The translations under genes and the position numbers were made by a program. Shown one piece after another: positions 13,283 through 39,311 of a stretch of DNA of 39,311 nt. Origin of the DNA: a virus; the UHGV virus genome UHGV-0361196; one strand, written 5' to 3'. Position 1 is the stretch's first letter; every line of letters begins with the position of its first letter. A model generated the notes under the pieces. That model was not told the DNA's origin, did no database searches, and saw only the letters and a list, made by a program, of their open reading frames with translations.

Positions 13283-13705
13283 ATGCAGCATGATTTATTT
13301 GAACACGATCCGGCAATTCGCCAGTTAATCGGACATATTGATAACATCCCGGCCCCGGAACTGGAATCACGCTGGCCCCGTTCGGTGGTTGATCTGATTG
13401 ATGTTCTGGAAAACGAACTGAAACGCCAGAACGTCAGCAATCCCCGTGAGCTTGCCCGTAAACAGGCCGTTGCCCTGTCCTGTTTTCTGGGCGGACGGCA
13501 GTTTTACATCCCCTGCGGCGATACGATCCTGACCGCGTTACGTGACGATTTGCTTTACTGCCAGTTTAATGGTCGTAACATGGAAGAACTGCGTCGCCAG
13601 TACCGCCTGTCCCAGCCGCAGATCTACCAGATTATTGCCCGCCAGAGAAAGCTGCATACACGACGTCATCAGCCTGATCTGTTCTCACCTGAAAGCCCAA
13701 AATAA
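13283..13705 (+). CDS. C: C, late-gene transcription activator (Mor/C family)
   Basis: 140 aa, paralogous to Mor (...NGRNMEELRRQYRLSQPQIYQIIARQRK); near-identical to Mu C as recalled; RBS GGGGGA. Confidence 0.9.
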   Translation: MQHDLFEHDPAIRQLIGHIDNIPAPELESRWPRSVVDLIDVLENELKRQNVSNPRELARKQAVALSCFLGGRQFYIPCGDTILTALRDDLLYCQFNGRNMEELRRQYRLSQPQIYQIIARQRKLHTRRHQPDLFSPESPK

Positions 13706-15337: not shown

Positions 15338-15624
15338 TTAACGATATTCTGACCGAAGACCGTCGTCTGGTCATCCTGCGTTCCCTGATGGACTGCAATA
15401 ACGAAGCCAACGAATCCATCCTTCAGGACTGTCTGGATGCATACGGACACAACGTTTCCCGCGATGTGGTTCGCGGCCAGATTGACTGGCTGGCAGAGCA
15501 GCAACTGGTCACCGTGGAAAACCTGCGCGGCTTTTATGTCGTAACGCTGACCTCCCGAGGTCAGGATGTGGCGGAAGGCCGCGCCCGCGTTGCCGGTGTC
15601 AAGCGTCCGCGTCCCCGTGCATGA
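15334..15624 (+). CDS. conserved Mu-like phage protein (96 aa), upstream of terminase genes
   Basis: ATGA overlap with upstream gene. Confidence 0.6.
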   Translation: MINDILTEDRRLVILRSLMDCNNEANESILQDCLDAYGHNVSRDVVRGQIDWLAEQQLVTVENLRGFYVVTLTSRGQDVAEGRARVAGVKRPRPRA

Positions 15625-15635
15625 CAGGAGGCGTG

Positions 15636-16211: not shown

Positions 16212-16218
16212 GAGGGTT

Positions 16219-21179: not shown

Positions 21180-21375
21180 ACTGAATCAGACATGAAATCA
21201 GCCGCACAGATTTTTTAAAACGCGCCACGGGATTTTTAAACCGGTATTTAACGGTGTATGAATCCCGTTTTATCTTCCTTCCACTTTCTTTCTCCAGTAC
21301 TCAAATAGCATAACCCCAGATTTTCCCGCACCTCCCGCAAACTGACTGCTCACAAACCATGATGAGCAGCAGGAC
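21180..21375. other. G-I intergenic region at the genome centre: candidate strong gyrase site and late promoter
   Basis: 196-bp non-coding gap about 18.5 kb from the left end of a 36.6-kb element, the position of the Mu central gyrase site; contains CCCGCACCT (21325..21333), also found upstream of lys. Confidence 0.35.
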
Positions 21376-22461
21376 ATGAAAAAACACGCGATTGGCATTG
21401 CCGCACTGAATGCGCTGTCCATTGACGATGACGGCTGGTGCCAGTTATTGCCTGCCGGTCATTTCAGTGCCCGTGATGGTCGTCCGTTTGATGTGACAGG
21501 CGGTCAGGGGTGGTTCATCGACGGTGAGATTGCCGGGCGTCTGATTGAAGGCGTTCGCGCGCTCAACCAGGACGTGCTGATTGATTACGAGCATAACCAG
21601 CTACGTAAGGACAAAGGATTACCCCCGGAACAACTCGTCGCGGCTGGCTGGTTTAACGCCGATGAAATGCAGTGGCGTGAAGGTGAAGGGTTATTTATCC
21701 ACCCACGCTGGACGGCGGCGGCCCAGCAGCGCATCGATGACGGCGAATTTGGTTATCTCTCTGCGGTTTTTCCGTATGACACCGCCACCGGTGCGGTGCT
21801 GCAAATCCGCCTTGCTGCGCTGACCAATGACCCCGGTGCCACCGGCATGAAAAAGCTGACCGCACTGGCGGCAGACCTTCCCGACATCCTTCAACAGGAG
21901 AACAAACCCATGAATGAAACGCTGCGCAAGCTGCTTGCGCGTCTTGGGGTGACGGTCCCCGAAAATGCAGACATCACCGATGAACAGGCCAGCGCGGCCC
22001 TGAGTGCGCTTGATGCGCTCGAAACAGATGCCGGAAAAGTGGCGTCGTTATCCGCCGAACTGGAAAAGGCACAGAAAGCCGCCGTTGACCTGACGAAATA
22101 CGTCCCGGTGGAAAGCTACAACGCCCTGCGTGATGAACTGGCACAGGCGACTGCACTAAGCGCCACAGCCAGCCTGAGCGCCGTTCTGGACAAGGCGGAA
22201 CAGGAAGGCCGCATTTTCAAAAGCGAACGTGCCTATCTGGAACAGCTTGGCGGTCAGATTGGCGTGGCGGCACTGTCGGCACAGCTTGAGAAAAAACAGC
22301 CCATCGCTGCGTTATCTGCCATGCAGACCACCACAGCGAAAATCCCGTCGCAGGAAAAAACGGCTGTGGCGGTGCTGTCTGCTGATGAACAGGCAGCAGT
22401 GAAGGCGCTCGGCATTACAGAGGCTGAGTATCTGAAAATGAAACAGGAACAAGAAAAATGA
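21376..22461 (+). CDS. I: head protease / scaffold protein (Mu I-like)
   Basis: 361 aa; N-terminal protease-like domain and C-terminal Ala/Glu/Lys-rich helical scaffold-like region. Confidence 0.85.
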   Translation: MKKHAIGIAALNALSIDDDGWCQLLPAGHFSARDGRPFDVTGGQGWFIDGEIAGRLIEGVRALNQDVLIDYEHNQLRKDKGLPPEQLVAAGWFNADEMQWREGEGLFIHPRWTAAAQQRIDDGEFGYLSAVFPYDTATGAVLQIRLAALTNDPGATGMKKLTALAADLPDILQQENKPMNETLRKLLARLGVTVPENADITDEQASAALSALDALETDAGKVASLSAELEKAQKAAVDLTKYVPVESYNALRDELAQATALSATASLSAVLDKAEQEGRIFKSERAYLEQLGGQIGVAALSAQLEKKQPIAALSAMQTTTAKIPSQEKTAVAVLSADEQAAVKALGITEAEYLKMKQEQEK

Positions 22462-23375
22462 TTGTCACCCCGGCATCCATTAAAGCCCTGATGACCTCCT
22501 GGCGTAAGGATTTTCAGGGCGGTCTTGAAGACGCCCCGTCGCAGTACAGCAAAATTGCAATGGTGGTGAACTCTTCCACCCGCAGTAATACCTATGGCTG
22601 GCTGGGTAAATTCCCGACCCTGAAAGAATGGGTGGGTAAGCGAACCATTCAGCAAATGGAAGCGCATGGCTACTCCATCGCCAATAAAACGTTTGAAGGC
22701 ACCGTGGGTATTTCCCGTGATGACTTCGAGGATGACAATCTGGGTATTTATGCGCCGATTTTTCAGGAGATGGGCCGTTCTGCGGCAGTTCAGCCGGATG
22801 AGCTGATTTTTAAACTTCTGAAAGATGGCTTTACCCAGCCCTGCTATGACGGTCAGAACTTCTTCGACAAGGAGCATCCGGTATATCCGAATGTGGATGG
22901 CACGGGCAGCGCGGTTAATACCTCCAACATCGTTGAGCAGGACAGCTTCAGCGGTCTGCCATTCTATCTGCTGGACTGCTCCCGCGCAGTCAAACCGCTG
23001 ATTTTCCAGGAGCGCCGCAAACCGGAACTGGTCGCACGTACCCGTATCGATGACGACCACGTTTTTATGGATAACGAGTTCCTGTTTGGTGCCAGCACCC
23101 GCCGTGCTGCCGGTTACGGCTTCTGGCAGATGGCTGTCGCGGTAAAAGGCGATCTGACGCTGGATAACCTCTGGAAGGGCTGGCAACTGATGCGCTCTTT
23201 TGAAGGTGATGGCGGTAAGAAACTGGGCCTGAAGCCGACGCATATCGTTGTACCGGTCGGGCTGGAAAAAGCCGCAGAGCAACTGCTTAACCGTGAACTG
23301 TTCGCGGATGGCAATACCACCGTCTCCAACGAGATGAAGGGCAAGCTGCAACTGGTTGTCGCTGACTACCTGTAA
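22458..23375 (+). CDS. T: major head (capsid) protein (Mu T-like)
   Basis: 305 aa; ATGA overlap with upstream gene; followed by a terminator. Confidence 0.9.
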   Translation: MIVTPASIKALMTSWRKDFQGGLEDAPSQYSKIAMVVNSSTRSNTYGWLGKFPTLKEWVGKRTIQQMEAHGYSIANKTFEGTVGISRDDFEDDNLGIYAPIFQEMGRSAAVQPDELIFKLLKDGFTQPCYDGQNFFDKEHPVYPNVDGTGSAVNTSNIVEQDSFSGLPFYLLDCSRAVKPLIFQERRKPELVARTRIDDDHVFMDNEFLFGASTRRAAGYGFWQMAVAVKGDLTLDNLWKGWQLMRSFEGDGGKKLGLKPTHIVVPVGLEKAAEQLLNRELFADGNTTVSNEMKGKLQLVVADYL

Positions 23376-23383
23376 CCGTCATT

Positions 23384-23407
23384 AAAAGGCGGTTCAGACC
23401 GCCTTTT
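23384..23407 (+). terminator. candidate intrinsic terminator after major head gene
   Basis: 9-bp stem AAAAGGCGG / CCGCCTTTT with loop TTCAGA; the T-run is part of the stem. Confidence 0.55.
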
Positions 23408-23441
23408 AACCTGATTTAAAGGAAAAGGAGGAGCATGTGTT

Positions 23442-23852
23442 ATGTCAGGCACTTCGCTTAATTCACAACGGCTGGACACTTCTCGCATCACTTGCACGGC
23501 GATTATTAAATGCCTTCGTCCGGTCTACCGCCGCGCCGGAATCGCCTTTACGCGTGGCGAAAACACCGTGGAAGTCACCGAAGAACAACTGGCGATCATT
23601 CGTGCCGACAGCGTGCTGTCTGTGGTATCTGCATCGTCAGCAGAAATGCTCGCTGAGGCTGGGGGGCTGGACGTTCTGGGTATGGGCGATCTGAATACCC
23701 GTATCCGTGCGACCGTTGCCGGTCTGGATAAGGCAAACCCGGAGCACTTTACCGCAGGGGGAGAACCCAAAGTGAAAGCCGTCAGTGCGGCGCTGGGGGA
23801 ACCGGTGAGCAGTGCGCAAATCAAAGCGGCGCTGGCTGAGGCGGATGCATGA
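23442..23852 (+). CDS. head-associated hypothetical protein (136 aa)
   Basis: RBS GGAGGAG upstream; Ala-rich. Confidence 0.7.
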   Translation: MSGTSLNSQRLDTSRITCTAIIKCLRPVYRRAGIAFTRGENTVEVTEEQLAIIRADSVLSVVSASSAEMLAEAGGLDVLGMGDLNTRIRATVAGLDKANPEHFTAGGEPKVKAVSAALGEPVSSAQIKAALAEADA

Positions 23853-24274
23853 ATTACGCGACGGTAAATGACCTGTGCGCCCGCTATACACGTACGCGGC
23901 TGGATATTCTCACCCGCCCTAAAACAGCGGACGGGCAGCCGGATGATGCCGTGGCAGAACAGGCACTGGCAGATGCTTCGGCCTTTATTGATGGCTATCT
24001 CGCCGCGCGCTTTGTTCTGCCGCTTACCGTCGTCCCCTCACTGCTGAAACGGCAGTGTTGCGTGGTGGCCTGGTTTTATCTGAATGAATCACAACCCACC
24101 GAGCAGATCACCGCAACTTACAGGGACACGGTGCGCTGGCTGGAACAGGTGCGCGATGGCAAAACAGATCCCGGCGTGGAAAGCAGGACGGCAGCCTCGC
24201 CGGATGGTGAAAACCTTGTGCGGGTGCAGTCTGACGCGCCGGTCTTCTCACGAAAACAGAAGGGGTTTATCTGA
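23849..24274 (+). CDS. head completion / head-tail joining protein candidate (141 aa)
   Basis: ATGA overlap with upstream gene; assigned by position between head and tail genes. Confidence 0.7.
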   Translation: MNYATVNDLCARYTRTRLDILTRPKTADGQPDDAVAEQALADASAFIDGYLAARFVLPLTVVPSLLKRQCCVVAWFYLNESQPTEQITATYRDTVRWLEQVRDGKTDPGVESRTAASPDGENLVRVQSDAPVFSRKQKGFI

Positions 24275-24822
24275 TGCTGGAAGAAACCGAAGCCGCACTG
24301 CTGGCGCGCGTTCGTGAGTTGTTTGGGGCAACCCTGCGGCAGGTGGAACCCCTTACCGGCACATGGACTAACGAGGATGTGCACCGTCTCTTTCTGGCCC
24401 CGCCATCGGTATTTCTGGCATGGATGGGCTGTGGTGAGGGGCGTACGCGTCGGGAAGTTGAAAGTCGCTGGGCATTTTTTGTCGTGGCGGAGTTGCTGAA
24501 CGGGGAACCGGTAAACCGGCCCGGTATTTATCAGATTGTGGAGCGACTGATTGCCGGTGTTAACGGTCAGACGTTTGGCCCGACCACCGGGATGAGGCTG
24601 ACGCAGGTCAGAAATCTTTGTGACGACAACCGTATCAATGCCGGTGTGGTGCTTTACGGCGTTCTGTTCAGTGGCACAACCCCGCTGCCGTCCGTAGTGG
24701 ACCTGGATTCGCTGGATGATTACGAGCGTCACTGGCAGACCTGGAAATTCCCGGACGAAACCCCGGAATTTGCCGCACATATCAATGTGAATCAGGAAAA
24801 GGATCATGATGCTGAAAATTAA
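24274..24822 (+). CDS. conserved Mu-like head-tail region protein (182 aa)
   Basis: Tightly coupled within the late operon. Confidence 0.7.
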   Translation: MLEETEAALLARVRELFGATLRQVEPLTGTWTNEDVHRLFLAPPSVFLAWMGCGEGRTRREVESRWAFFVVAELLNGEPVNRPGIYQIVERLIAGVNGQTFGPTTGMRLTQVRNLCDDNRINAGVVLYGVLFSGTTPLPSVVDLDSLDDYERHWQTWKFPDETPEFAAHINVNQEKDHDAEN

Positions 24823-25012
24823 ACCCGCAGCGGGAAAAGCCATCCGTGACCCGCTCACGATGAAATTACTGGCTCCGGAGGGAGAAGAAAAGCCCCGTAA
24901 CAGTTTCTGGATACGTCGCCTTGCAGCCGGTGATGTGGTTGAAATCGGGAGCACCGAAAACACGGCGGATGATACCGACGCTGCGCCGAAAAAACGGAGT
25001 AAATCGAAATGA
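24806..25012 (+). CDS. small conserved Mu-like protein (68 aa) upstream of sheath
   Basis: Overlaps both neighbours. Confidence 0.6.
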
Positions 25013-26496
25013 GCGATATTTCATTTAACGCGATCCCGTCAGATGTTCGCGTTCCTCTGACGTATATCGAATTTGATAACAGTAATGCCGTCAGCGGAAC
25101 ACCGGCACCCCGTCAGCGCGTGCTGATGTTCGGGCAAAGCGGAAGTAAAGCCAGTGCGGCACCAAACGTGCCTGTCCGTATCCGTTCCGGCTCACAGGCC
25201 AGTGCGGCATTTGGTCAGGGTTCCATGCTGGCACTGATGGCAGATGCATTCCTGAACGCTAACCGCGTGGCGGAGCTGTGGTGTATTCCGCAGGGAAACG
25301 GCACCGGTAATGCTGCTGTCGGTGAAATCTCACTGTCCGGAACGGCAGGCGAAAACGGCTCGCTTGTGACTTACATAGCCGGTCAGCGACTGGCGGTATC
25401 TGTCGCAGCAGGTGCAACGGGAGCGGCGCTGGCTGACCTGCTGGTTGCCCGAATCAAAGGCCAGCCTGATTTACCGGTGACGGCAGAAGTTCGCGCAGAC
25501 AGCGGGGATGATGACACCCATGCAGATGTGGTTCTGAGTGCAAAATTTACGGGTGCATTATCTGCCGTGGATGTGCGCTGGAACTATTACGCGGGTGAAA
25601 CCACCCCTTACGGGATTATCACGGCATTCAAAGCCGCCTCCGGGAAAAATGGCAACCCGGATATCAGCGCAAGTATCGCGGGAATGGGCGATCTGCAATA
25701 CAAATATATTGTGATGCCCTATACCGATGAACCGAACCTGAATCTGTTACGCACTGAATTGCAGGAACGCTGGGGACCGGTCAATCAGGCTGATGGCTTT
25801 GCCGTGACAGTGCTGTCCGGCACGTATGGGGATATTTCCACGTTTGGTGTCAGTCGTAATGACCATCTGATCTCCTGTATGGGGATTGCCGGTGCACCGG
25901 AACCGTCATACCTGTACGCCGCCACACTGTGTGCCGTTGCCAGCCAGGCGCTTTCCATCGACCCGGCGCGTCCTCTCCAGACGCTGACGTTGCCCGGAAG
26001 AATGCCGCCTGCGGTGGGGGATCGTTTCACCTGGTCAGAACGTAATGCGCTGCTGTTTGACGGCATCTCCACGTTTAACGTGAATGATGGTGGTGAAATG
26101 CAGATTGAACGCATGATCACGATGTACCGCACAAACAAGTACGGTGACAGCGATCCGTCTTATCTGAACGTGAATACCATCGCCACGCTGAGTTATCTGC
26201 GTTATTCGCTGCGAACCCGCATCACGCAGAAATTCCCGAACTACAAGCTGGCAAGTGATGGCACCCGCTTTGCCACCGGTCAGGCCGTGGTGACGCCATC
26301 CGTGATCAAGACGGAACTGCTGGCACTGTTTGAAGAATGGGAAAACGCCGGACTGGTCGAGGATTTCGACACGTTCAAAGAGGAGCTGTATGTGGCACGT
26401 AACAAGGACGACAAAGACCGTCTTGATGTGCTGTGCGGCCCGAATCTGATTAACCAGTTCCGCATTTTCGCGGCACAAGTTCAGTTCATTCTGTAA
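25009..26496 (+). CDS. L: contractile tail sheath protein
   Basis: 495 aa; immediately upstream of the tube gene. Confidence 0.9.
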
Positions 26497-26505
26497 GGAG
26501 CATTT

Positions 26506-26862
26506 ATGGCTGGAAATCAGCGTCAGGGGGTGGCGTTCATCCGTGTCAATGGCATGGAGCTTGAATCAATGGAAGGTGCCTCCTTCACGCCTTCCGGCAT
26601 CACCCGTGAAGAAGTGACCGGCTCGCGGGTTTATGGCTGGAAAGGTAAACCACGTGCCGCAAAAGTGGAATGCAAAATTCCGGGCGGTGGTCCCATCGGG
26701 CTGGATGAAATTATCGACTGGGAAAACATCACCGTCGAATTCCAGGCTGATACCGGTGAAACCTGGATGCTGGCGAATGCCTGGCAGGCGGATGAACCGA
26801 AAAACGACGGCGGCGAAATTTCGCTGGTACTGATGGCAAAACAAAGCAAACGCATTGCATAA
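26506..26862 (+). CDS. M: tail tube protein
   Basis: 118 aa; strong RBS AAGGAG. Confidence 0.85.
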   Translation: MAGNQRQGVAFIRVNGMELESMEGASFTPSGITREEVTGSRVYGWKGKPRAAKVECKIPGGGPIGLDEIIDWENITVEFQADTGETWMLANAWQADEPKNDGGEISLVLMAKQSKRIA

Positions 26863-26871
26863 GGGGAAACA

Positions 26872-27306
26872 ATGGACGAAATGAATTTAAGTCCTGAAGC
26901 ACAGGAACTGCGTGACAGTATTGTGGCGGAGCTTCAGTCCGGTGGGCTGAAACTGAAAGACGGCCTCCCGTTCGGCACCGGTGACGAGACTGAAATGCAG
27001 TATGACGTGACACTGCGTGAACTGACCGCAGGCGATCTGATTGATGCCCAGGCGGCTGCTGAAAAGCTGGTAATGAGCAAGGAAGGTCCGGTGCTGGTCA
27101 GTTCCCCGTCCCGGATGGGACTGGAAATGCTGCGCCGACAGATTGCCAGCGTGGGTTGCATCAAAGGCCCGTTATCGCTGGCGCTGATGCGCAAGCTGTC
27201 TGTTGATGACTTCCAGCGTCTGTCGCTGGCTACAGAGATGCACGACATGGCTGTGGCGGCATCGCTGACGCAAGAACGGGGGCGAGTGGCTGCGGTGCCG
27301 GAATGA
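26872..27306 (+). CDS. tail assembly chaperone-like protein
   Basis: 144 aa; acidic; positioned between tube and tape-measure genes. Confidence 0.65.
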   Translation: MDEMNLSPEAQELRDSIVAELQSGGLKLKDGLPFGTGDETEMQYDVTLRELTAGDLIDAQAAAEKLVMSKEGPVLVSSPSRMGLEMLRRQIASVGCIKGPLSLALMRKLSVDDFQRLSLATEMHDMAVAASLTQERGRVAAVPE

Positions 27307-27450
27307 TATTGAGAAAGCGGCGACAGCGATTGGCGTTATTCTGAAAAGTGGCCCGGAATGGGCCTTGTCTCTCCCGCTGTCCCGCTTTTTCCGGCACTGC
27401 CAGCAGGCGAAAACCCTCTCTCAATATCACCGTTAAATCAGGAAATATCT

Positions 27451-29709
27451 ATGACCGGGAAACGCTTAAAAGCGTCAGTCATTATTGACCTTAATGGCAA
27501 TCTTTCCCGGCGTTCCCGCCAGTATTCGAACCAGATAAACGCCCTGTCCCGTAGCGGGCAAAGTTCCCTTCGTGCCCTGCGTATGGAGGTTGTGCGCGTT
27601 TCTGGTGCCATTGACAGAATGGGTTCTCTGTCAACCCGTACATTCCGAATGCTGTCAGCCGGGGCGCTGGGTATCGCTGGCGTGGGTTACACCGCCAATA
27701 AACTGTTTATTGGTGCAGCCGCCCAGCGTGAGCAACAGATCATCGCCATGAACTCGCTGTATCACGGCGATAAGGTCAGAGCGCAGGCCATGATGGCCTG
27801 GGCAAAGCAGAACGCGAAGGACACCACGTGGGGGCTGAGTGGTGTTCTTGATGAGATCCGTTCGTCGAAAGGCTTCGGCATGACGGATGAACAGACGAAA
27901 CAGTTCATCACCATGTTGCAGGATCAGGGGGCCATGCACGGCTGGGATTTACCCACTGCACAGGGTGCCTCACTGCAACTGAAACAGATGTTTGCCCGCC
28001 AGCAAATCACAGCGGCGGATGCCAACCTGCTGACCGGTTACGGTATCAACGTTTATCAGGCGCTGGCTGATGCAACGGGAACGGACGTTAAAAAAATCCG
28101 TGATCTGGGTACAAAGGGCAAGCTGGGCATGAAATCCATTCTGACGGTATTCAGAACGCTGTCAGAACAGTCAAAAGGTGCACAGGCCAGTGCGATGAAC
28201 TCCTGGGACGGGATGTTCGCCCAGATGGAAGCCAACCTGCTTGAATTTCGCATAAAGGTGGCAAACAGCGGCCCCTTTGAAGAAATCAAGAACGAGATGC
28301 GCCGGGTGCTTAACTGGCACGACATGGCGGATAAATCCGGGGAACTTGACGCACTGGCAGAAAACATTGGTCAGAAATTTCTGACCACGTTCAGAACGGT
28401 AAAAATCGCGGCGCAGGAATTATGGCGCTGGCTGAAACCGGGCAAGGATGCGCTGGTATGGGTTGACCAGAATATTGTCAGCCTGAAAAAACTGGCTGCT
28501 GTTCTGGTGTCCGTCTGGCTTGCCAACAAAGCTCTGAGGGCAGGCTGGGCCGTGGCTAAACCCTCATGGCAGGTTGCCAGTTATCCGTTTAAAACCGGGC
28601 GTCGTATGTGGCGCCGGATGCGGAACCGCAAACGTGAGCAGGCAGGTCTGCCGATCCCGGCGCCCATGACAACTGAGGCGCTGTTGCAGGGCACCGGCAT
28701 TCAGCGTGTGTTTGTCATCAACTGGCCCCGTGGATTTGGTGGCTACGGGAGTGGCGGCGGTCGTCGCGGACGCGGCGGCGGAAGAACGCCCCCGCTGTTA
28801 CCCCGCCAGCCGCTGTTGCTGCCCGGGCCACGACCACTGCCATTACCTGCACCACGCCCTGTGCCGGCATTACCCCCACCCGGCGTTCCGGCAGCAGCAC
28901 GCCCCGCGCCACGACCTTTACCCGGTAAATCCGGTCTTCCGGGCAGGTTTGCAGGCAGCGCTGCCGCGCAGCAGGTTACGGGAGCGGCAGGAACGCTGGC
29001 GAATGCCGGGCGTACTGTCAGCAGACTGCTTTCCGGTGCCGGAAACAGGCAGACCGCGCCATCTCCGGTCGTTCCGGTAACACCGCGCCCCGCGCCCCGC
29101 CCTTTGCCCGCTAAATCCGGTCTTCCGGGCAGGCTGGCAGGCAGCGCTGCCGGGCAACGGGTTACGGGAACGGTCGGAAAACTGGCTGATGTCGGGCGTG
29201 CCGTTGGCGGGTGGTTTTCCGGTATCGGGAACAGACTCGCAGACAGCGCAATCGGTAGGGTTGTGACAAAAGGTGCCGGGGCGCTGGGCTGGATGGGGAA
29301 AGGTGCCGGTCGTGCCCTGTCACGTCTGGGTGGCCCGGTAATGGGGGCACTCCAGCTTGCCCCCGTCCTGATGGATGAGCAGGCGTCAACCCATGAAAAA
29401 GCAGGCGCAATTGGCAGTACAGCCGGTGCATGGCTCGGCGGTGCCGTTGGCAGCCTTGCCGGACCGCTGGGTACGGTTGCCGGTGCCACGTTGGGCAGTG
29501 TCGCCGGGGAGTATCTGGGCGGTTTTGTAACCGACCTGTATCAGAAATGGACGGCCCCGGATAAGGAACCGCAGGAACAAAAAGTGAATGCGGAAGCCTC
29601 GCTGCGCGTCGAACTTGGCGAGGGGTTACGTCTGACCAGTTCCCGCGTCACCGAGGACGGTATGGGGCTGAATATTTACGCGGGCGATAACTACATTACA
29701 GGCTGGTAA
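27451..29709 (+). CDS. tail tape measure protein
   Basis: About 752 aa from ATG 27451 (AGGAAA upstream); Ala/Gly-rich helical N-terminal half; Gly- and Pro-rich low-complexity stretch and internal tandem duplication; C-terminal Gly-rich region. Confidence 0.85.
28898..29269. repeat. in-frame tandem duplication of about 186 bp inside the tape-measure gene
   Basis: TAAATCCGGTCTTCCGGGCAGG occurs at 28926..28947 and 29112..29133 (period 186 bp); encodes two consecutive 62-aa units beginning RPAPRPLP[GA]KSGLPGR. Confidence 0.6.
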
Positions 29710-29713
29710 AACC

Positions 29714-31201
29714 ATGTTTGAAGATGCTTTAAATGCCGTTAATGCTGTCCGGGATAAAATCAGCGGTGGTAAGAAAACAACCGGCAAAGGCACGTTTCGT
29801 AACGTGCCGTTTCTCGTCATCGAGGAGCAAAAACAGGCTGGCGGACGTCGCCTGGTTAAACGCGAGTACCCGTTACGTGATACCGGCGGCGTCAATGACC
29901 TGGGGAAAAAGCTTCGCTCCCGTACATTCAGCGCCTGCATTCTGAACAGCAACGCAGAAACAGCCAGAGATGAAGCGGGTGCGCTGATGGATGCTCTTGA
30001 TGCTCCGGGTGGCGGTGAGCTGGTACATCCTGATTTCGGCACTGTGGACGTCATGGTGGATTCATGGGAATGCCGCACTAAAGCGGATGAACTGAATTAT
30101 TACGCGTTCACCGTTACCGTTTATCCGTCGTTGCAGGATACTGCCCCGGACTCAGAGACAGACACCAGTGCAGCCGTACCGGCACAGGCCGTTGCTGTAA
30201 CCGGTTCTCTGGGAGATACGCTGTCCTCTGTCTGGCAGACCGTAAAAGATGGCACTGCGGCGGCAACCGCCGTGATGGAAGCTGTAACCGGTGTCATCGA
30301 TGATATCAGTGATGCGGTGGACAATCTGGGGGTTACGCAGACTGTCAGCGGTCTGATGGGATCGCTTTCTGCGATGAAAGGCTCTGTGACCAGCCTGATT
30401 AACCAGCCTGCCATGCTGGCCTCCTCGCTGATGGGGGCGCTGTCCGGCGTTTCATCGTTATGCGATACCCGGACAGCATTTTCCACATGGAACCGTCTGG
30501 CGCAGCGATTCGAACGTCGCCATGCCGCCACCGCAGGCAGACAGGGGACAATCACAACCTCGTACAACAGTCCGGTTGCAGAAAAAAATATTGCCACACT
30601 GAACTACGTCATGCTGGCAGCAGCACAGACATACCGGGCGGAGGCAGCAAGCCAGGCACTGACTGCGGCACTGGATTTCAGTCGCCGGATGGATAATGCC
30701 GCCCGTGCACCTGTACTGGATGCCCCGTCCACCACAACCGGCACAGCCAGCGGGGCCAGCAGCACATCCGCTACCGTCACACAGGGACAGTTACAGTTAA
30801 CTGCCATAACCCCGGACGGCGGTTTTTCACAGGTATCCTTTTCAGACAGTGGTACAGCCACGCCCCCGGTATTTGAAAGTGTGTCCGATATCGGAAAAAC
30901 AGCCGCCATGCTGGGGGCAGCGCTGGATACCGTCATTCTGACGGCATCTGAGCAGGGTTTTTCGACAGACAGCGCTCAGCTTACGCAACTGCGCCTGCTG
31001 GTTGTTGCTGACCTGGAAAAACGCGGACTGCAACTGGCGGGCAGTGAAATGCACAGCCTGCCGGAGACGATGCCCGCAGTGGTGGCCCTGTACCGTTACA
31101 CAGGAAACAGCCGGAACTGGCAACGGCTGGCCCGCAGGAATGGCAGCAGCAACCCGTTATTTGTTCCCGGTGGTGTCAGTACTGAGGTGATTAATGAGTA
31201 A
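29714..31201 (+). CDS. N: tail/baseplate protein (Mu N-like, DNA circularisation protein family)
   Basis: 495 aa; Ala/Thr/Ser-rich C-terminal half; assigned by position after the tape measure. Confidence 0.8.
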
Positions 31202-32333
31202 TACCGTCACACTGCGAGCGGATGGCAGGCTGTTTACCGGCTGGACGTCAGTTTCTGTCACCCGCTCCATTGAATCCGTAGCCGGATATTTTGAGCTGGG
31301 GGTGAATGTGCCACCGGGTACAGATTTATCCGGGCTGGCACCGGGGAAGGCGTTCATGCTGGAAATCGGGGGGCAGATTGTCTGCACCGGTTATATCGAT
31401 TCACGGCGACGCCAGATGACCGCTGACAGTATGAAAATCACTGTCGCCGGACGTGACAAAACGGCTGACCTGATTGACTGTGCTGCCGTTTACAGTGGCG
31501 GACAGTGGAAAAACCGCACACTGGAGCAGATTGCGCGTGACCTGTGCGCCCCTTATGGCGTTACCGTTCGCTGGGAGCTTTCCGATAAGGAAAGTTCGGC
31601 AGTTTTTCCCGGCTTCACGCTGGACCATTCAGAAACCGTTTATGAGGCGCTGGTGCGTGCCTCCCGCGCACGCGGTGTACTGATGACCAGCAATGCCGCC
31701 GGAGAGCTGGTATTCAGCCGGGCTGCCAGCACAGCCACTGATGAGCTGGTTCTCGGAGAAAATCTGCTGACACTGGATTTTGAGGAAGACTTCCGCGACC
31801 GGTTCAGCGAATACACCGTCAAGGGGTATGCCCGCGCAAATGGTGCTGAGGGTGATGATATTGATGCGAAAAGTATCGTCTCCCGGAAAGGGACCGCGAC
31901 TGACAGTGATGTGACCCGTTACAGACCGATGATCATCATTGCTGACAGCAAAATTACGGCGAAGGATGCACAGGCCCGCGCCCTGCGTGAGCAACGCCGC
32001 AGACTGGCAAAATCCATCACCTTTGAGGCAGAAATTGACGGATGGACTCGCAAGGACGGGCAACTCTGGATGCCGAACCTGCTGGTCACTATTGATGCCT
32101 CGAAATATGCCATCAAAACCACGGAATTACTGGTCAGCAAAGTCACCCTGATACTGAATGACCAGGACGGGCTGAAAACCCGCGTCAGCCTTGCACCACG
32201 CGAAGGCTTTCTGGTGCCGGTTGAAAGCGACCGTAAAAACAGGAAAGGCGGCGACAGTAACGGCGGTATTGATGCGCTGGTTGAAGATTATTATCGCAGA
32301 CACCCGGAGAAAACGCCGCCATGGAAAGAGTAA
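31194..32333 (+). CDS. P: baseplate hub protein (Mu P-like)
   Basis: 379 aa; overlaps upstream gene. Confidence 0.8.
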
Positions 32334-32914
32334 ATGACTCCGCCATGAACCGCCTGCTAACGCCGCTGATGCGTCGTGTGCGCCTGATGCTTGCGCGCGC
32401 TGTTGTTAACGTGATTAACGACGGGCGAAAGGTTCAGAACCTGCAGGTCGGTCTGCTGGATGATGAGGAATCCGATGAAGTGGAGCGCCTGCAAAATTAC
32501 GGGCATTTCAGCGTTCCCCTGCCGGGCGCAGAGGCGCTGATTGCCTGTGTGGGCGCACAACGTGATCAGGGGATTGCTGTTGTGGTGGAAGACCGCCGCT
32601 ACCGCCCGACAAATCTTGAACCGGGTGATGCAGGCATTTACCACCATGAGGGGCATCGTATCAGGCTGACAAAGGACGGACGCTGCATCATTACCTGTAA
32701 AACGGTCGAGGTTTACGCTGATGAAAGTATGACCGTTGACACACCCAGAACCACGTTTACCGGCGACGTTGAGATCCAGAAAGGTCTGGGCGTTAAAGGT
32801 AAAAGCCAGTTCGACAGCAATATTACTGCCCCGGATGCCATCATCAATGGCAAATCGACGGATAAGCATATCCACCGTGGCGACAGCGGTGGAACCACGG
32901 GGCCAATGCAATGA
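32321..32914 (+). CDS. baseplate central spike / assembly protein V-like
   Basis: 197 aa; C-terminal beta-rich region; assigned by position and size. Confidence 0.7.
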   Translation: MERVNDSAMNRLLTPLMRRVRLMLARAVVNVINDGRKVQNLQVGLLDDEESDEVERLQNYGHFSVPLPGAEALIACVGAQRDQGIAVVVEDRRYRPTNLEPGDAGIYHHEGHRIRLTKDGRCIITCKTVEVYADESMTVDTPRTTFTGDVEIQKGLGVKGKSQFDSNITAPDAIINGKSTDKHIHRGDSGGTTGPMQ

Positions 32915-33348
32915 CCGATTTAGCCATTATCTGGACGAACGGACGCGGCGATATTGCACAGGATGGCATTGATATGCTGACCGACGACAGCCTGACAACC
33001 GATGTGACAATCTCCCTGTTTACAGACCGGCGCGCGCTGGATTCTGACACGCTGCCGGATGGTTCAGATGATCGCCGTGGATGGTGGGGTGACAGTTACC
33101 GCGACCGCCCCATCGGTTCGCGGTTGTGGCTGTTATCACGTGAAAAAGCCACACCGGATACGCTGGAACGCGCCAGAGGGTATGCCGAAGAGGCGCTGGA
33201 ATGGCTGAAAACAGCGGGCCGGGTAAGTGCGATTAACGTCAGAGCGGAACAGTTACATCAGGGCTGGTTATACCTCTACATTGCCCTGACATTACCGGAT
33301 GGTTCCGTTATTCCTTATGAGTTTAAAGCAGCATTTAACGGGGTTTAA
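32911..33348 (+). CDS. baseplate wedge protein (W/gp25-like)
   Basis: 145 aa; ATGA overlap with upstream gene. Confidence 0.7.
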   Translation: MTDLAIIWTNGRGDIAQDGIDMLTDDSLTTDVTISLFTDRRALDSDTLPDGSDDRRGWWGDSYRDRPIGSRLWLLSREKATPDTLERARGYAEEALEWLKTAGRVSAINVRAEQLHQGWLYLYIALTLPDGSVIPYEFKAAFNGV

Positions 33349-34431
33349 ATGGCTTATTCACCACCGACATTATCATCGCTGATTGCCCGTACAGAACAGA
33401 ATATTGAACAGCGCCTGCCGGGTAGCTGGCCTCAGGCCCGTGAAAAAACGCTGAGTGCCATTGCATATGCTCAGGCGGGCCTTGCTGCCGGTTGTCACGA
33501 GCATATTTCATGGGTTGGACGGCAGATTATCCCGTCGACAGCAGATGAAGATGAGTTGCTGGAGCACTGCCGGTTCTGGGGCGTGCGCCGCAAACAGGCG
33601 ACAGCCGCCAGCGGCCCGCTGACTGTCACCACATCGGCAGCGACCACCATTCCTGCCGGTACACGCTGGCAGCGTGCTGATGGTGTGGTTTACAGCCTGG
33701 CTGATGCCATTGTGATTGACCGTGCAGGAACGACGGAAATTACCGTTACCGCACTGGCTGCCGGTGAAGCAGGAAATACCGGTGAGAATACCCTTTTAAC
33801 GTTGATCACCCCGGTTGCCTGTGTTGTTTCCGATGCCATCACTGTAAAAGGGTTTTCCGGTGGGGCTGATATTGAGAGTGCAGCGGAGCTGCTGTCACGG
33901 CTGGAATATCGTGTCCAGTATCCTCCGTTCGGCGGTAATCAGTTTGATTATGTTCGCTGGGCGCGTGAAGTCAGCGGCGTTACCCGTGCCTGGTGTTTTC
34001 CGACATGGAAAGGCGGTGGCACAGTCGGGGTGACGTTTGTTATGGATAACCGGAGCAATATTTTTCCACAACCGGCAGACGTGGAACGCGTGGCGGATTA
34101 TATCGCCGGTCATACTGACCCGATTACCGGTCTGATTGTCGGACAGCCTGACGGTGTAAATGTCACTGTATTTGCGCCAAAGGCAAAGCCGGTAAATCCA
34201 CGGATTTATATATCACCGAAGACAGCCGAACTGAAACAGGCTATTACCCACGCCATTAATACCATGTTTTTTAATGAGGTGACGCCGGGCGGCGCACTTG
34301 CCCCCTCCCGTATTATCCGTGCGGTGGCAGGTGTTACCGGTCTGGATGATTTTGAAGTGCGTTTCCCGACAGAGATCCAGCGTTCGGAGAATACAGAACT
34401 GTTAACACCGGGGACAATTGAATGGCTGTAA
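33349..34431 (+). CDS. baseplate J-like protein
   Basis: 360 aa; assigned by size and position. Confidence 0.8.
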   Translation: MAYSPPTLSSLIARTEQNIEQRLPGSWPQAREKTLSAIAYAQAGLAAGCHEHISWVGRQIIPSTADEDELLEHCRFWGVRRKQATAASGPLTVTTSAATTIPAGTRWQRADGVVYSLADAIVIDRAGTTEITVTALAAGEAGNTGENTLLTLITPVACVVSDAITVKGFSGGADIESAAELLSRLEYRVQYPPFGGNQFDYVRWAREVSGVTRAWCFPTWKGGGTVGVTFVMDNRSNIFPQPADVERVADYIAGHTDPITGLIVGQPDGVNVTVFAPKAKPVNPRIYISPKTAELKQAITHAINTMFFNEVTPGGALAPSRIIRAVAGVTGLDDFEVRFPTEIQRSENTELLTPGTIEWL

Positions 34432-34964
34432 CACCCTATCAGACGGCCTTTCTGCAATTACTGCCGTCAGGGCTTGCCTGGAATAAAAGCCCCGACAGCA
34501 AATTATCTGCGCTGGCGCAGGCCATCAGCGACGTGATTGCCACTGCGGCGGATGATGCGCGGCAAATGCTGCGGGAGCGTTTCCCGTCCACATCCCGCTG
34601 GTATCTGGGTGAGTGGGAATCATTTCTGGGGTTGCCGGACTGTACAAGCGAAAACGGCACCCTGTCCGAACGCCAGCGGGCTGCCGCGAATAAAATGCGT
34701 ATGACCGGCAATCTGAGTCGGCGCTTTTATGAATGGCTGGCTGCGCAGTACGGTTTTACCGTCAGGCTGACGGATTCCACAGAAGGCCAGTGGGTTACGC
34801 AGGTCAATATTTACGGTATTAAAAATTATCGCAACGCAACGGTGCTGGATAATGTTCTGACGCCGTTACGTGTTTATGAATCGGGTGCGCTGGAATGTTT
34901 ACTGGAGAAATATAAACCTGCACATCAGATTTATAAATTTGTTTACCATGACGGAGATAACTAA
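34422..34964 (+). CDS. baseplate/tail protein (P2 gpI-like position)
   Basis: 180 aa; overlaps both neighbours. Confidence 0.7.
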   Translation: MAVTPYQTAFLQLLPSGLAWNKSPDSKLSALAQAISDVIATAADDARQMLRERFPSTSRWYLGEWESFLGLPDCTSENGTLSERQRAAANKMRMTGNLSRRFYEWLAAQYGFTVRLTDSTEGQWVTQVNIYGIKNYRNATVLDNVLTPLRVYESGALECLLEKYKPAHQIYKFVYHDGDN

Positions 34965-37528
34965 TGTTTTATATTGATAACGACAGCGGCGTAACCGTCA
35001 TGCCGCCCGTATCCGCCCAGCGTAGTGCTATCGTTCGCTGGTTTTCAGAAGGTGACGGGAATAATGTTATCACATGGCCCGGCATGGACTGGTTTAATAT
35101 TGTGCAGGCGGAGTTATTAAACACGCTGGAAGAAGCCGGTATTCAACCGGATAAAACAAAATTAAACCAGCTTGCACTGTCCATTAAAGCCATTATGGGC
35201 AATAACGCGCTGCTGATAAAAAATAACCTCAGCGAAATAAAAACGGCCGGGGCATCAGCACAGCGCACAGCACGTGAAAATCTGGGTATTTATGATGCCA
35301 GTGTGAGCAAAAAGGGGCTGGTTCAGCTAAGCAGTGCAACAAACAGCACCAGTGAAAAGCTGGCAGCAACGCCAAAAGCGGTCAAGGCAGCAAATGACAA
35401 CGCAAATTCACGTCTGGCGAAAAATCAGAACGGTGCAGATATCCAGGATAAATCAGCTTTTCTGGACAATGTTGGCGTTACCAGCCTGACGTTTATGAAA
35501 AACAATGGCGAAATGCCGCCTGATGCTGATCTGAATACATTTGGTCCCGTTAAGGCTTATCTGGGGATCTGGTCTAAAGCTACCTCAACTAACGCAACAC
35601 TGGAGAAAAATTTTCCGGAAGATAATGCTGTCGGTGTGCTTGAGGTTTTTGCTGCCGGCAATTTTGCAGGCACGCAACGCTTTATCACGAGAGACGGCAA
35701 TGTATACATGCGTAAACTCGCCAATAAGTGGAATGGTACTGATGGTCCATGGGGCGTATGGCGTCACACTCAATCAGCTACCCGCCCTTTGAGTACGACT
35801 ATAGACCTGAATACGCTTGGAGCCGCCGAACATCTTGGTTTATGGCGTAACAGTAGCTCGGCTATAGCTTCATATGAACGCAATTATCCAGAGGAAGGCG
35901 GCTTTGCTCAGGGGACGCTTGAGATCCTCGAAGGCGGGAATTATGGAAGAACACAACGTTATACCACTCGCCGTGGAAATATGTATGTCCGCTGCCTTGC
36001 GGCAAGCTGGGATGCATCAAATCCGCAGTGGGAACCGTGGTTAAGAGTCGGTCATCAGTCAGAGAGTCGTTATTACGACGGGGATTTGAATGATGTGACT
36101 TCACCAGGTATTTACAGCGTTACAGGTAAAGCGACCAACGGTCCAGTACTGGACGGAAACGGCGTGACTGTACTCGGCATTCTGGAAGTGTTGAGGCGGT
36201 TTGATGGTGTTAATGTATGGCAGCGTTATACAACTGCCGGAACAGGTACAACCCTTAAAGGCCGCACCTTTGAGCGCGTCTTTACCGGCAGCTCATGGAG
36301 CGAATGGCGGGAAGTCTACACCTCGTATTCACTTCCCCTGAATCTGGGTATCGGCGGTGCTGTGGCAAAGCTCACCAGCCTGGACTGGCAGACCCACGAC
36401 TTTGTGCCGGGCAGTCTGATAACCGTTCGGCTTGATAACATGACCAACATTCCCAACGGTATGGACTGGGGCGTCATTGATGGCAACCTGATAAACATCG
36501 CAGTTGGTCCGAGTGATGATTCCGGTACGGGGCGCTCAATGCATGTATGGCGCAGCACTGTAAGTAAAGCGAACTACCGCTTTTTTATGGTGCGTATTTC
36601 AGGAAATCCGGGACGCCGCACGATTACAGCAAGACGAGTACCAATCATTGACGAAGCCCAGACATGGGGCGCGAAACAGACATTCAGTGCTGGCCTTTCT
36701 GGTGAACTGTCCGGCAATGCGGCGACAGCAACAAAGCTGAAAACAGCCCGTAAAATTAATAACGTTTCGTTTGATGGAACATCAGATATTAACCTGACGC
36801 CGAAAAATATTGGTGCATTTGCTTCAGGAAAAACAGGAGACACCGTTGCGAATGATAAAGCCGTTGGATGGAACTGGAGTAGCGGAGCCTATAACGCAAC
36901 TATTGGTGGGGCATCAACGTTAATTCTTCATTTTAATATCGGGGAAGGAAGTTGTCCCGCCGCCCAGTTTCGCGTTAATTATAAGAACGGTGGTATTTTT
37001 TATCGTTCTGCTCGTGACGGTTACGGATTCGAGGCTGACTGGTCTGAGTTTTATACCACAACGCGAAAACCTACAGCGGGAGATGTCGGTGCACTGCCGT
37101 TATCTGGTGGTCAATTGAATGGTGCTCTGGGTATAGGAACATCCAGTGCTCTTGGCGGTAATTCGATTGTTTTGGGTGATAATGACACGGGCTTTAAACA
37201 AAATGGTGATGGTAATCTGGATGTTTATGCTAATAGCGTCCATGTTATGCGCTTTGTCTCCGGAAGCGTTCAAAGTAATAAAACCATAAATATTACGGGG
37301 CGTGTTAATCCCTCGGATTACGGTAACTTTGATTCCCGCTATGTGAGAGATATCAGACTTGGCACACGTGTTGTCCAGACCATGCAGAAAGGGGTGATGT
37401 ATGAGAAAGCAGGGCACGTAATTACCGGGCTTGGTATTGTCGGTGAAGTCGATGGTGATGACCCCGCAGTATTCAGACCAATACAAAAATACATCAATGG
37501 CACATGGTATAACGTTGCGCAGGTGTAA
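34964..37528 (+). CDS. tail fibre protein with three tandem knob-like modules
   Basis: 854 aa; N-terminal region typical of Mu S / P2 H-type fibres (...SSATNSTSEKLAATPKAVKAANDNA...); three tandem modules of about 85 aa at aa 188-452; C-terminal Gly-rich region. Confidence 0.85.
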   Translation: MFYIDNDSGVTVMPPVSAQRSAIVRWFSEGDGNNVITWPGMDWFNIVQAELLNTLEEAGIQPDKTKLNQLALSIKAIMGNNALLIKNNLSEIKTAGASAQRTARENLGIYDASVSKKGLVQLSSATNSTSEKLAATPKAVKAANDNANSRLAKNQNGADIQDKSAFLDNVGVTSLTFMKNNGEMPPDADLNTFGPVKAYLGIWSKATSTNATLEKNFPEDNAVGVLEVFAAGNFAGTQRFITRDGNVYMRKLANKWNGTDGPWGVWRHTQSATRPLSTTIDLNTLGAAEHLGLWRNSSSAIASYERNYPEEGGFAQGTLEILEGGNYGRTQRYTTRRGNMYVRCLAASWDASNPQWEPWLRVGHQSESRYYDGDLNDVTSPGIYSVTGKATNGPVLDGNGVTVLGILEVLRRFDGVNVWQRYTTAGTGTTLKGRTFERVFTGSSWSEWREVYTSYSLPLNLGIGGAVAKLTSLDWQTHDFVPGSLITVRLDNMTNIPNGMDWGVIDGNLINIAVGPSDDSGTGRSMHVWRSTVSKANYRFFMVRISGNPGRRTITARRVPIIDEAQTWGAKQTFSAGLSGELSGNAATATKLKTARKINNVSFDGTSDINLTPKNIGAFASGKTGDTVANDKAVGWNWSSGAYNATIGGASTLILHFNIGEGSCPAAQFRVNYKNGGIFYRSARDGYGFEADWSEFYTTTRKPTAGDVGALPLSGGQLNGALGIGTSSALGGNSIVLGDNDTGFKQNGDGNLDVYANSVHVMRFVSGSVQSNKTINITGRVNPSDYGNFDSRYVRDIRLGTRVVQTMQKGVMYEKAGHVITGLGIVGEVDGDDPAVFRPIQKYINGTWYNVAQV
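35525..36319. repeat. three tandem, diverged protein-level repeats in the tail fibre gene
   Basis: Modules beginning LNTFGPV, LNTLGAA and LNDVTSP share the pattern G-x-LE[IV]-x5-8-Q-R-[FY]-x-T-x4-8-R-x7-8-W-x-x-W. Confidence 0.5.
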
Positions 37529-37531
37529 ATT

Positions 37532-38059
37532 ATGCAGCATTTAAAAAACATTAAGTCAGGTAATCCAAAAACAAAAGAACAATATCAGCTAACAAAGAAT
37601 TTTGATGTTATCTGGTTATGGTCCGAAGACGGAAAAAACTGGTATGAGGAAGTAAGTAATTTTCAGCCAGACACAATAAAGATTGTTTACGATGAAAATA
37701 ATATTATTGTCGCCATCACCAGAGATGCTTCAACGCTCAACCCTGAAGGTTTTAGCGTTGTCGAGGTTCCTGATATTACCGCCAACCGACGTGCAGACGA
37801 CTCAGGTAAATGGATGTTTAAGGATGGTGCCGTGATTAAGCGGATTTATACGGCGGACGAACAGCAGCAACTGACAGAATTACAGAAGGCAACTTTGCTT
37901 TCCGAAGCTGAATCCGTGATTTTGCCGCTGGAACGCGCTGTCAGGCTGAATATGGCAACAGATGAGGAGCACAGCCGACTGGAGGCATGGGAACGCTACA
38001 GCGCTCTGGTCAGCCGCGTGGATACGGCAAAGCCAGAATGGCCACAAAAACCAGAGTAA
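37532..38059 (+). CDS. U: tail fibre assembly chaperone (Mu U / lambda Tfa-like)
   Basis: 175 aa directly after the fibre gene; C-terminal segment [32 protein letters not shown] typical of Tfa proteins. Confidence 0.8.
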
Positions 38060-38064
38060 AAATT

Positions 38065-38092
38065 AAGGCCCGATAGCGGGCCTTCTCTTATT
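38065..38092. terminator. hairpin terminator between convergent tail-fibre-assembly sequences
   Basis: 8-bp stem AAGGCCCG / CGGGCCTT with loop ATAG, followed by CTCTTATTC. Confidence 0.55.
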
Positions 38093-38291
38093 CTGGTTGT
38101 TCGGAAAACGTTACTGGCAGGCTGGAGGGGTCTGTATATTCGACCTTCTGCGCATAGAGCATCCACTCGGTTAATTTTTGTTTATTCTCGTCGGAAATGA
38201 TACCCAGCCGTAGCGAACGCATATAGAAAACGACGATCGAATCAATTGAATCGATCGGTAATACAGATCGATTATGCCCCAATAACCACAC
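38088..38291 (-). pseudogene. relic of an inverted second tail-fibre-assembly gene (G-segment remnant)
   Basis: Minus-strand 67-aa ORF whose last 30 aa (SDENKQKLTEWMLYAQKVEYTDPSSLPVTFSEQPE) mirror the Tfa C-terminus pattern D-E-x4-L-x2-W-x2-Y-x3-V-x3-D; convergent with the intact chaperone gene; no variable fibre part or invertase follows. Confidence 0.35.
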
Positions 38292-38320
38292 TCAACCCAT
38301 GATGTTTTTTAAGATAGTGG
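38231..38320 (+). promoter_or_regulatory. mom operon promoter region with Dam-methylation (GATC) cluster
   Basis: Three GATC sites within 35 bp (38235..38238, 38253..38256, 38266..38269), then T6 tract 38305..38310 and candidate -10 TAAGAT; matches the known Mu mom promoter architecture; RBS AAAGGAGG before com. Confidence 0.6.
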
Positions 38321-38343
38321 CGAATTGATGCAAAGGAGGTGAG

Positions 38344-38532
38344 ATGAAATCAATTCGCTGTAAAAACTGCAACAAACTGTTATTTAAGGCGGATTCCTTT
38401 GTTCACATTGAAATCAGGTGTCCGCGTTGCAAACGTCACATCATAATGCTGAATGCCTGCGAGCATCCCACGGAGAAACATTGTGGGAAAAGAGAAAAAA
38501 TCACGCATTCTGACGAAACCGTGCGTTATTGA
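38344..38532 (+). CDS. com: Com, zinc-finger translational activator of mom
   Basis: 62 aa with CxxC...CxxC (CKNCN, CPRCK); near-identical to Mu Com as recalled. Confidence 0.9.
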
Positions 38533-39190
38533 GTATGAAGGCCAGATTGTTGGCTATGGTTCAAAGGAGCTGCGCGTTGAAACCATATCCTGCTGGCTGG
38601 CCCGCACAATTATTCAGACAAAGCACTATTCCCGCCGTTTTGTGAATAACTCTTACCTCCACCTGGGAGTATTCAGCGGACGCGATCTGGTTGGCGTTCT
38701 CCAGTGGGGATATGCCCTTAACCCCAACTCAGGTCGTCGTGTCGTGCTTGAAACGGATAACCGGGGCTATATGGAGTTGAATCGCATGTGGCTACACGAC
38801 GACATGCCCCGCAACTCTGAATCACGGGCCATCAGCTACGCGCTGAAAGTTATCAGATTACTGTATCCGTCAGTGGAGTGGGTTCAGTCATTTGCTGACG
38901 AACGCTGCGGATGCGCAGGCGTTGTGTATCAGGCGTCGAATTTTGATTTTATTGGCAGCCATGAAAGCACGTTCTACGAGCTGGATGGTGAGTGGTATCA
39001 CGAGATAACGATGAACGCAATTAAGCGCGGTGGACAACGAGGCGTGTATTTACGGGCTAATAAAGAGCGTGCCGTGGTGCACAAATTTAATCAGTATCGC
39101 TACATCAGGTTCCTGAACAAGCGAGCAAGGAAGCGGCTAAATACTAAGCTATTCAGGGTTCAGCCATACCCTAAAAGCACTCCCGATTAG
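38453..39190 (+). CDS. mom: Mom, DNA modification protein (adenine modification, anti-restriction)
   Basis: ORF overlapping the 3' end of com in another frame, as in Mu; matches Mu Mom as recalled; the true start is probably downstream of 38453, near the com stop. Confidence 0.85.
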
Positions 39191-39268
39191 TATCAAATAA
39201 TTTTTCGTTGTGCCGTTTTGGGTGGTATCAAAAAAAATTCAAAACGGTATCAAATGATTTTGCGCGCT
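39186..39268. repeat. right end (attR-like) with three putative transposase-binding repeats
   Basis: GTATCAAA at 39190..39197, 39225..39232 and 39247..39254, the reverse complement of the left-end TTTGATAC motif; the outermost 14-mer AAATCATTTGATAC is shared by both ends in inverted orientation. Confidence 0.6.
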
Positions 39269-39278
39269 TTATACTGAT

Positions 39279-39311
39279 GTTGTTGTTCCTGCTACTGCTA
39301 CTGCTACTGCT
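39279..39311. repeat. short microsatellite in right flank
   Basis: (GTT)3 at 39279..39287 followed by (GCTACT)3 at 39291..39308, running to the window edge. Confidence 0.5.

Follow-up and report, generated by a model that had tools for sequence, protein, structure and literature searches.

A Mu-type mom operator-promoter with three clustered GATC sites in a gin-less Mu-family prophage

The segment directly upstream of com in the viral genome UHGV-0361196 (39,311 nucleotides, hereafter the window) is, by its sequence, the known Mu mom control region, with its Dam, OxyR and C elements. Positions 38215-38345, i.e. -107 to +24 relative to the mom transcription start, are identical to Mu 35639-35769 at 129 of 131 positions, and the three GATC sites, the C-box, the -35, the T6 run, the -10 and the com start are all unchanged. 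Over the same region, identity is 96.9% with D108 and 95-97% with SfMu and several Mu-like phages of Yersinia. The Mu record places a C-dependent late promoter at 35693-35759, with com and mom after it. Both genes are intact in the window, where they overlap as an operon downstream of the mom promoter, Pmom. The com gene (38344..38532, plus strand) encodes the zinc-finger protein that activates translation of mom (61/62 residues shared with Mu Com); mom (38483..39190, plus strand) encodes the enzyme that modifies adenine in DNA (239/241 residues shared with Mu Mom). For mom we adopted the GTG start of the Mu annotation (Mu CDS 35907-36602, offset 2576), the open frame running from the ATG at 38453. 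The gene for the late transcriptional activator C, needed in trans for Pmom, is present at 13283..13705 (plus strand; 139/140 identical to Mu C). A preliminary description, made from the sequence, had proposed that the Mu-type arrangement, with Dam and OxyR acting together with C, precedes com-mom; the alignment with the Mu mom regulatory region and the presence of C in the window support this proposal. The analysis establishes directly the sequence identity, the presence of every phage component in cis and in trans, the match to the OxyR consensus and the conserved GATC geometry. We consider it very probable that the segment serves a Mu-family transposable prophage as its mom operator-promoter and that it works as in Mu.

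The three Dam sites span 35 bp: GATC1 at 38235-38238 (-87 to -84), within CGATCG; GATC2 at 38253-38256 (-69 to -66); and GATC3 at 38266-38269 (-56 to -53), 13 bp past GATC2. GATC1 and GATC2 lie in the near-palindrome CGATCGAATCAATTGAATCGATCG (38234-38257), in which 22 of 24 positions are self-complementary. The corresponding stretch is self-complementary at 20/24 positions in Mu and 18/24 in D108. The window differs from Mu by only two substitutions, at 38217 and 38248; the latter turns the gin stop codon from TAA into TGA and raises the palindrome from 20/24 to 22/24. A second near-palindrome, AATCGATCGGTA-A-TACAGATCGATT (38249-38273), which the preliminary description did not mention, overlaps the first one, shares GATC2 with it and holds GATC3. 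The GATC sites they contain are upstream of the C-box. Thus the cluster of three Dam sites within 35 bp, partly covered by a near-palindrome, is as had been described.

Clustering alone is nevertheless weak evidence. GATC is strongly depleted over the whole window: dinucleotide-preserving shuffles give 140 +/- 12 sites, and 76 are observed. For 76 randomly placed sites, the probability that any three fall within 35 bp somewhere in the window is about 0.12; with the 140 sites expected from the shuffles it reaches 0.53. Since this statistic is not decisive, we relied on homology and conservation: the case rests on the position directly upstream of com, on the 129/131 identity with Mu and on conservation across lineages. 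Another tight triplet of GATC sites occurs at 2082, 2105 and 2118 (2082-2121, 40-bp span). It was rejected as a related element: it belongs to a plasmid methyltransferase gene and thus lies beyond the limits of the prophage.

Pmom (momP1) occupies 38285..38315 on the plus strand. It is composed of a -35 ACCACA (38285-38290, -37 to -32), a 19-bp spacer ending in a run of six T (38305-38310), and a -10 TAAGAT (38310-38315, -12 to -7) which the T run abuts. The T6-containing promoter reported downstream of the GATC cluster is therefore found where it was expected. The mom transcription start is the G at 38322, and a GGAGG at 38335 precedes the com ATG at 38344. A putative C-binding dyad, TTAT-N6-ATAA (38272..38285, -50 to -37), is identical to that of Mu; its assignment as the C site follows the Hattman-lab footprints. 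The region thus combines poor -35 and -10 hexamers, a 19-bp spacer carrying T6 and an overlapping C dyad, i.e. the features of a weak promoter. Scanning 37900-38500 with a sigma-70 consensus returned no promoter-like site, as an activator-dependent promoter is expected to escape such a consensus. The start was reconstructed from published coordinates: those of a 78-bp mom fragment spanning -58 to +20 and of a primer annealing downstream of +56 (PMC3378877), together with the sequence of the tin7 oligonucleotide (PMC4461284). On this scale the tin7 change (T to G) maps to 38308, i.e. -14. A divergent leftward promoter, momP2, has been described, at which RNA polymerase resides in the absence of C (PMC3378877). 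Its probable -10 is CATAAT on the minus strand (38271..38276, read from 38276 to 38271), because the "P2 disrupted" oligonucleotide turns CGATTATG into CGGTTGCG (PMC4461284).

We searched the entire window for matches to the 37-bp OxyR tetramer consensus, made of two ATAGnTnnnAnCTAT half sites; the half-site consensus is that quoted in PMC2909390. Two overlapping registers, 38223-38259 and 38232-38268, match at 13 of 20 positions each, and two more registers matching at 12/20 overlap this pair. A score of 13/20 is reached at only 4 of 39,275 window positions, two of which are those on the GATC cluster, and these are the two best matches inside the prophage. Together they delimit a putative OxyR operator at 38223..38268 (-99 to -54). 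This operator aligns with the regulatory region of agn43 (flu) of E. coli K-12 over 41 invariant columns with one 1-nt gap, and the GATC spacing is 18+13 bp in the window against 19+13 bp in agn43. Both systems have three GATC inside the OxyR site at comparable spacing, a likeness that covers the arrangement of the sites. In agn43 methylation blocks OxyR, which serves as repressor (PMC2909390). In contrast to agn43, mom also needs a phage activator. The mom operator is upstream of its promoter (-99 to -54). The gtr operons of Salmonella contain GATC pairs 13 bp apart within single OxyR half sites, and methylation abolishes the binding of OxyR (PMC2909390). These 13-bp pairs inside half sites are common to gtr (P22), opvAB and mom. 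However, gtr and opvAB have four GATC and alternative OxyR sites, and there OxyR acts in both activation and repression, with heritable ON/OFF states, whereas mom has three GATC and OxyR is solely a repressor.

In Mu, Dam and OxyR govern Pmom, and the dependence on C is due to the poor hexamers, the suboptimal spacer and the T stretch (PMC3378877, PMC4461284); C unwinds the promoter and recruits polymerase (PMC4461284). From this published work we infer the Dam/OxyR/C dependence of the prophage and the binding events that go with it. Host OxyR would bind the -99 to -54 operator when the GATC sites are unmethylated (partly if they are hemimethylated) and repress Pmom; methylation of the three sites by host Dam would prevent this binding. 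Even then Pmom would presumably stay silent, because its poor -35 and -10 are kept out of phase by the 19-bp T6 spacer, and RNA polymerase would sit at the divergent momP2 instead. Phage C would then bind TTAT-N6-ATAA, unwind the spacer and bring polymerase to momP1, after which Com would allow translation of the toxic Mom enzyme.

The D108 and Mu operators share with the window the three GATC at -87, -69 and -56, the C dyad, the -35, the T6 spacer, the -10, com and mom. Upstream of -108 the window differs: it has a remnant of U', and gin, the G(-) half and the Fis site at -123 are gone. By blastn, 37493-38214 corresponds to Mu 32937-33657 and 38214-39174 to Mu 35638-36598. The 1,980 bp missing relative to Mu (33658-35637) comprise most of U', the variable part of S', the right gix site and gin except its last 10 codons. 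Blastn and alignments against Mu place the junction at 38214..38215 (-108/-107); the best OxyR-consensus match (38223-38268) and its first ATAG element follow 8 bp downstream. To the right of the junction, the 3' end of gin (38217..38249, plus strand) retains the last 10 codons and a stop (THIENDDRIN*; Mu gin CDS end 35673 equals window 38249) and holds GATC1. To the left of it, the 3' remnant of U' (38088..38214, minus strand, 42 codons) is a tail-fibre assembly pseudogene of the G(-) orientation that shares about 94% identity with Mu 33503-33657; its RefSeq annotation is that of a pseudogene, a partial tail fiber assembly protein.

This junction accounts for the minus-strand ORF at 38088-38291 (67 aa). 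Only its residues 26-67 match Pfam Caudo_TAP (profile positions 89-131), and they are its sole homologous part; of a tail-fibre assembly protein, no more than the C-terminal third is left. Residues 1-25 come from reading the 3' end of gin and the mom operator in the antisense direction. As judged from the sequence, the ORF is therefore a chimera, the deletion having joined the U' C-terminus to antisense operator sequence. The GATC cluster covers codons 8-19. The overlap of the cluster with the N-terminal part of this "relic ORF" had been taken to argue that the ORF is non-coding there: the overlap is real, and the antisense origin of residues 1-25 speaks for the same conclusion. Expression from momP2 of the 67-aa ORF, or of an internal 44-aa ORF with an ATG at 38222, was considered and rejected as a gene; neither minus-strand ORF has a Shine-Dalgarno sequence. 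Further left, a bidirectional intrinsic terminator is predicted at 38065..38084 (both strands), as a hairpin after the tail-fibre assembly gene U; at the homologous position, the D108 annotation has a rho-independent terminator on each strand. This predicted terminator insulates com-mom from read-through of the late tail operon. A Gin quasi-site origin of the deletion was dropped: the right endpoint resembles gix at about 11/24 positions by eye and the left endpoint is not at gix.

The comparison with other cassettes is based on a search for Mom that returned 43 viral contigs and 3 genome contigs, the viral set carrying the comparison. The Mom homologue of Magnetospira (L008) was left out: its contig begins inside com and has no upstream region. 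In the 26 distinct com-mom upstream regions, GATC occurs at 42.3 per kb in a 60-nt operator window against 1.77 per kb elsewhere in the loci, a 24-fold enrichment. The spacing is 18+13 in 13 of them, 18 alone in 12 and 31+13 in one. GATC1 is thus kept 18 bp from GATC2 in 25/26 and the 13-bp spacing in 14/26, the latter also being present in agn43. Two loci, L006 (from an isolate of the Enterobacteriaceae, with a Mom 83% identical) and L049, retain the 18+13 spacing while the sequence between and around the sites is unalignable with that of Mu; in both the gene upstream of the cassette is a tail-fibre assembly gene, without an invertase. When eight diverged cassettes were aligned, GATC2 was invariant and an ATAA core was present at the C-box position in 7/8. 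For Mu-type operators 0/12 GATC columns vary against 14/111 of the others (Fisher p = 0.22), a test that is under-powered because there is too little variation in this class.

A second class of com-mom cassettes (L030-L046, IMG/VR) encodes a Mom 92-97% identical and a Com with a different N-terminus (MD...). Its members have only two GATC, 18 bp apart in the palindrome ACGATCGATAnCATCATATCGATCGT, about 205-185 nt upstream of the Mom match, and TATAG precedes this palindrome at the same distance as in Mu. The two-GATC, 18-bp pattern is found in 12 distinct operators, including that of a separate Scandinavium locus (L007).

Three independent gin deletions were observed, of the window/L023, L018 and L027 types (window 38214/38215; L018 2017-2264; L027 2239-2262). 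Their right endpoints all fall at Mu 35613-35640, in the last 60 nt of gin, at most about 30 bp ahead of the first OxyR element. This convergence is compatible with selection for keeping the operator (n = 3). The P1-like Salmonella phage SJ46 (L005 2486-2660) carries, directly after the invertase gene pin, a relic of the mom operator-promoter that is 85% identical. This copy is decayed: com is cut after about 8 codons, mom is absent, and all three GATC are mutated, to GCTC, GGTC and GATT. At 15% divergence the chance of losing all three is about 0.1, and this is a single lineage; the loss of GATC alongside that of mom is suggestive rather than significant. An E. coli plasmid (NZ_CP159120.1) contains a P1-like plasmid prophage, also with an 85%-identical operator-promoter and about 8 com codons and without mom.

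Could the GATC trio be an inert passenger, leftover from the gin 3' end and the intergenic spacer and clustered by chance? GATC1 does fall within the last gin codons, and a triplet this tight somewhere in the window has a probability of about 0.12. But the 18+13 spacing is kept in L006 and L049, which have neither an upstream invertase gene nor an alignable spacer, GATC is enriched 24-fold across the 26 operators, the three gin deletions all spare the cluster and the sites are gone where mom is gone (SJ46). We therefore regard this explanation as extremely unlikely. It is also very unlikely that the cluster is mainly read by a factor other than OxyR, either SeqA acting on hemimethylated pairs after replicative transposition or methylation acting directly on polymerase at momP2. 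GATC1 and GATC3 are 31 bp apart, i.e. about three helical turns, a spacing that SeqA can use, and Correnti and colleagues reportedly found in 2002 that the related agn43 switch is altered in a seqA mutant. The genetic and binding studies published so far nevertheless assign the effect to OxyR, and the match of the cluster to the OxyR consensus is better than almost anywhere in the window and aligns with the OxyR site of agn43.

The other question raised by the deletion is whether the operator is present with its regulation altered. The DNA upstream of -108 is that of U', and mom might be leakier or less Dam-dependent than in Mu. The Mu Fis site centred at -123 (protection from -133 to -115; PMC3378877) is removed by the junction, possibly together with distal OxyR or bending contacts, and only 8 bp of Mu-homologous DNA are left upstream of the first ATAG element. 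Among the Fis sites mapped in that study, -123 is lost in the window while -98, -49, -38 and +3 are retained. The full upstream context of Mu (to about -136, with the Fis site at -123 and the gin 3' end) is thus incomplete, Mu homology beginning at -107. We did not treat this context as defining, because the -123 site is dispensable for Fis repression in vitro: removal of the -123 and -98 sites together left this repression intact (PMC3378877). Moreover, both best OxyR-consensus registers are fully within the retained DNA, and the arrangement is tolerated, as the gin-less phage occupies three insertion sites, its junction being identical in strains 1290 and S6 and slightly diverged in L023. 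An altered regulation therefore appears unlikely, and working as in Mu remains our preferred reading, even if, with the -123 Fis site lost, the quantitative behaviour may differ from that of Mu.

The Mu mom switch is a textbook case in which DNA methylation gates a toxic gene, so its occurrence in a relative of Mu brings no new principle. The gin deletion and the GATC geometry across lineages are modest additions to this known system. Locally, the assignment anchors the annotation of the right end of the prophage: operator, momP1/momP2, com, mom, and a U' pseudogene that replaces the 67-aa ORF. It also indicates that a Mu derivative without gin, and hence with a fixed host range, keeps everything from -107 downstream, the whole putative OxyR operator included, and has integrated at three or more sites. 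The comparative set constitutes a ready natural mutagenesis series for OxyR/Dam operators, with the 18+13 spacing, the two-GATC class and the decayed SJ46 copy.

A broader reading, possible though somewhat doubtful in our eyes, is that com-mom and its Dam/OxyR operator may form a portable anti-restriction cassette, complete in itself, with selection acting on its left edge. It is based on the three gin deletions, which stop short of the operator, and on the persistence of two GATC sites 18 bp apart, in most cases followed by a third after another 13 bp, across different upstream genes and in otherwise unalignable cassettes. If this were true, Dam/OxyR gating would be, besides C, an obligatory safety catch for the toxicity of Mom across enterobacterial phages, and the two-GATC variant (class B, 12 distinct operators) would be its natural minimal form.

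Outside the mom region the phage is a mosaic of Mu late genes and a different transposition and immunity module. By blastn, 6988-39174 aligns with Mu in several pieces, mostly 93-98% identical; gaps interrupt the early region, and the tail-fibre segment has been replaced. The first 6987 bases gave no nucleotide match to Mu. The left arm of the prophage (2691-6987) and its right end (39175-39271) have no nucleotide similarity to Mu, both ends differing from those of Mu. In contrast to Mu and D108, the repressor and the transposase, like the ends, are thus not those of Mu. The left arm encodes a repressor (2924-3559, minus strand), a ner-like gene (3613-3885), a Mu-type transposase of 695 aa (3888-5975) and a B-like ATPase (6049-6981). 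The termini of the prophage are the inverted repeats TAtAGaGaGgtAAATCATTTGATAC, and three ATTTGATAC motifs are present at each end (2707, 2811 and 2853 on the plus strand; 39189, 39224 and 39246 on the minus strand).

Two other departures from Mu concern the tail genes. The homology with Mu S ends at 35442 (Mu 31936), some 30 bp short of the left boundary of the G segment; the tail fibre (854 aa, 34964-37528) has C-terminal domains of the gp37_C type and is followed by a U-like chaperone (37532-38059). With U', S', the right gix site and gin deleted, host range is therefore fixed in one orientation. In addition, two blastn segments, 11499-29047 (Mu 8178-25727) and 29065-35442 (Mu 25560-31936), overlap by about 168 bp in Mu coordinates, which suggests a duplication or insertion of about 185 bp in the tape-measure gene (29047-29065 region).

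The flanks of the prophage, 1-2690 and 39272-39311, belong to the leading region of an IncF-type conjugative plasmid and encode a DUF3560 protein (557-1918) and a class I SAM methyltransferase (1965-2528). The uninterrupted insertion site is found in pAPEC-O2-R (TGTCTGTTACTGATG), and TACT is duplicated at both ends of the prophage; the prophage in the window is therefore plasmid-borne. The plasmid-prophage junction was found in no complete E. coli genome of the collection. The gin-less junction itself is present, identical, in 2 of the 5,426 complete E. coli genomes, those of strain 1290 (in ydcO) and strain S6 (next to ydcV); the IMG/VR contig L023 carries a copy that has diverged slightly. 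With the IncF plasmid of the window, this makes three insertion sites, and the gin-less configuration has therefore been mobilised more than once.
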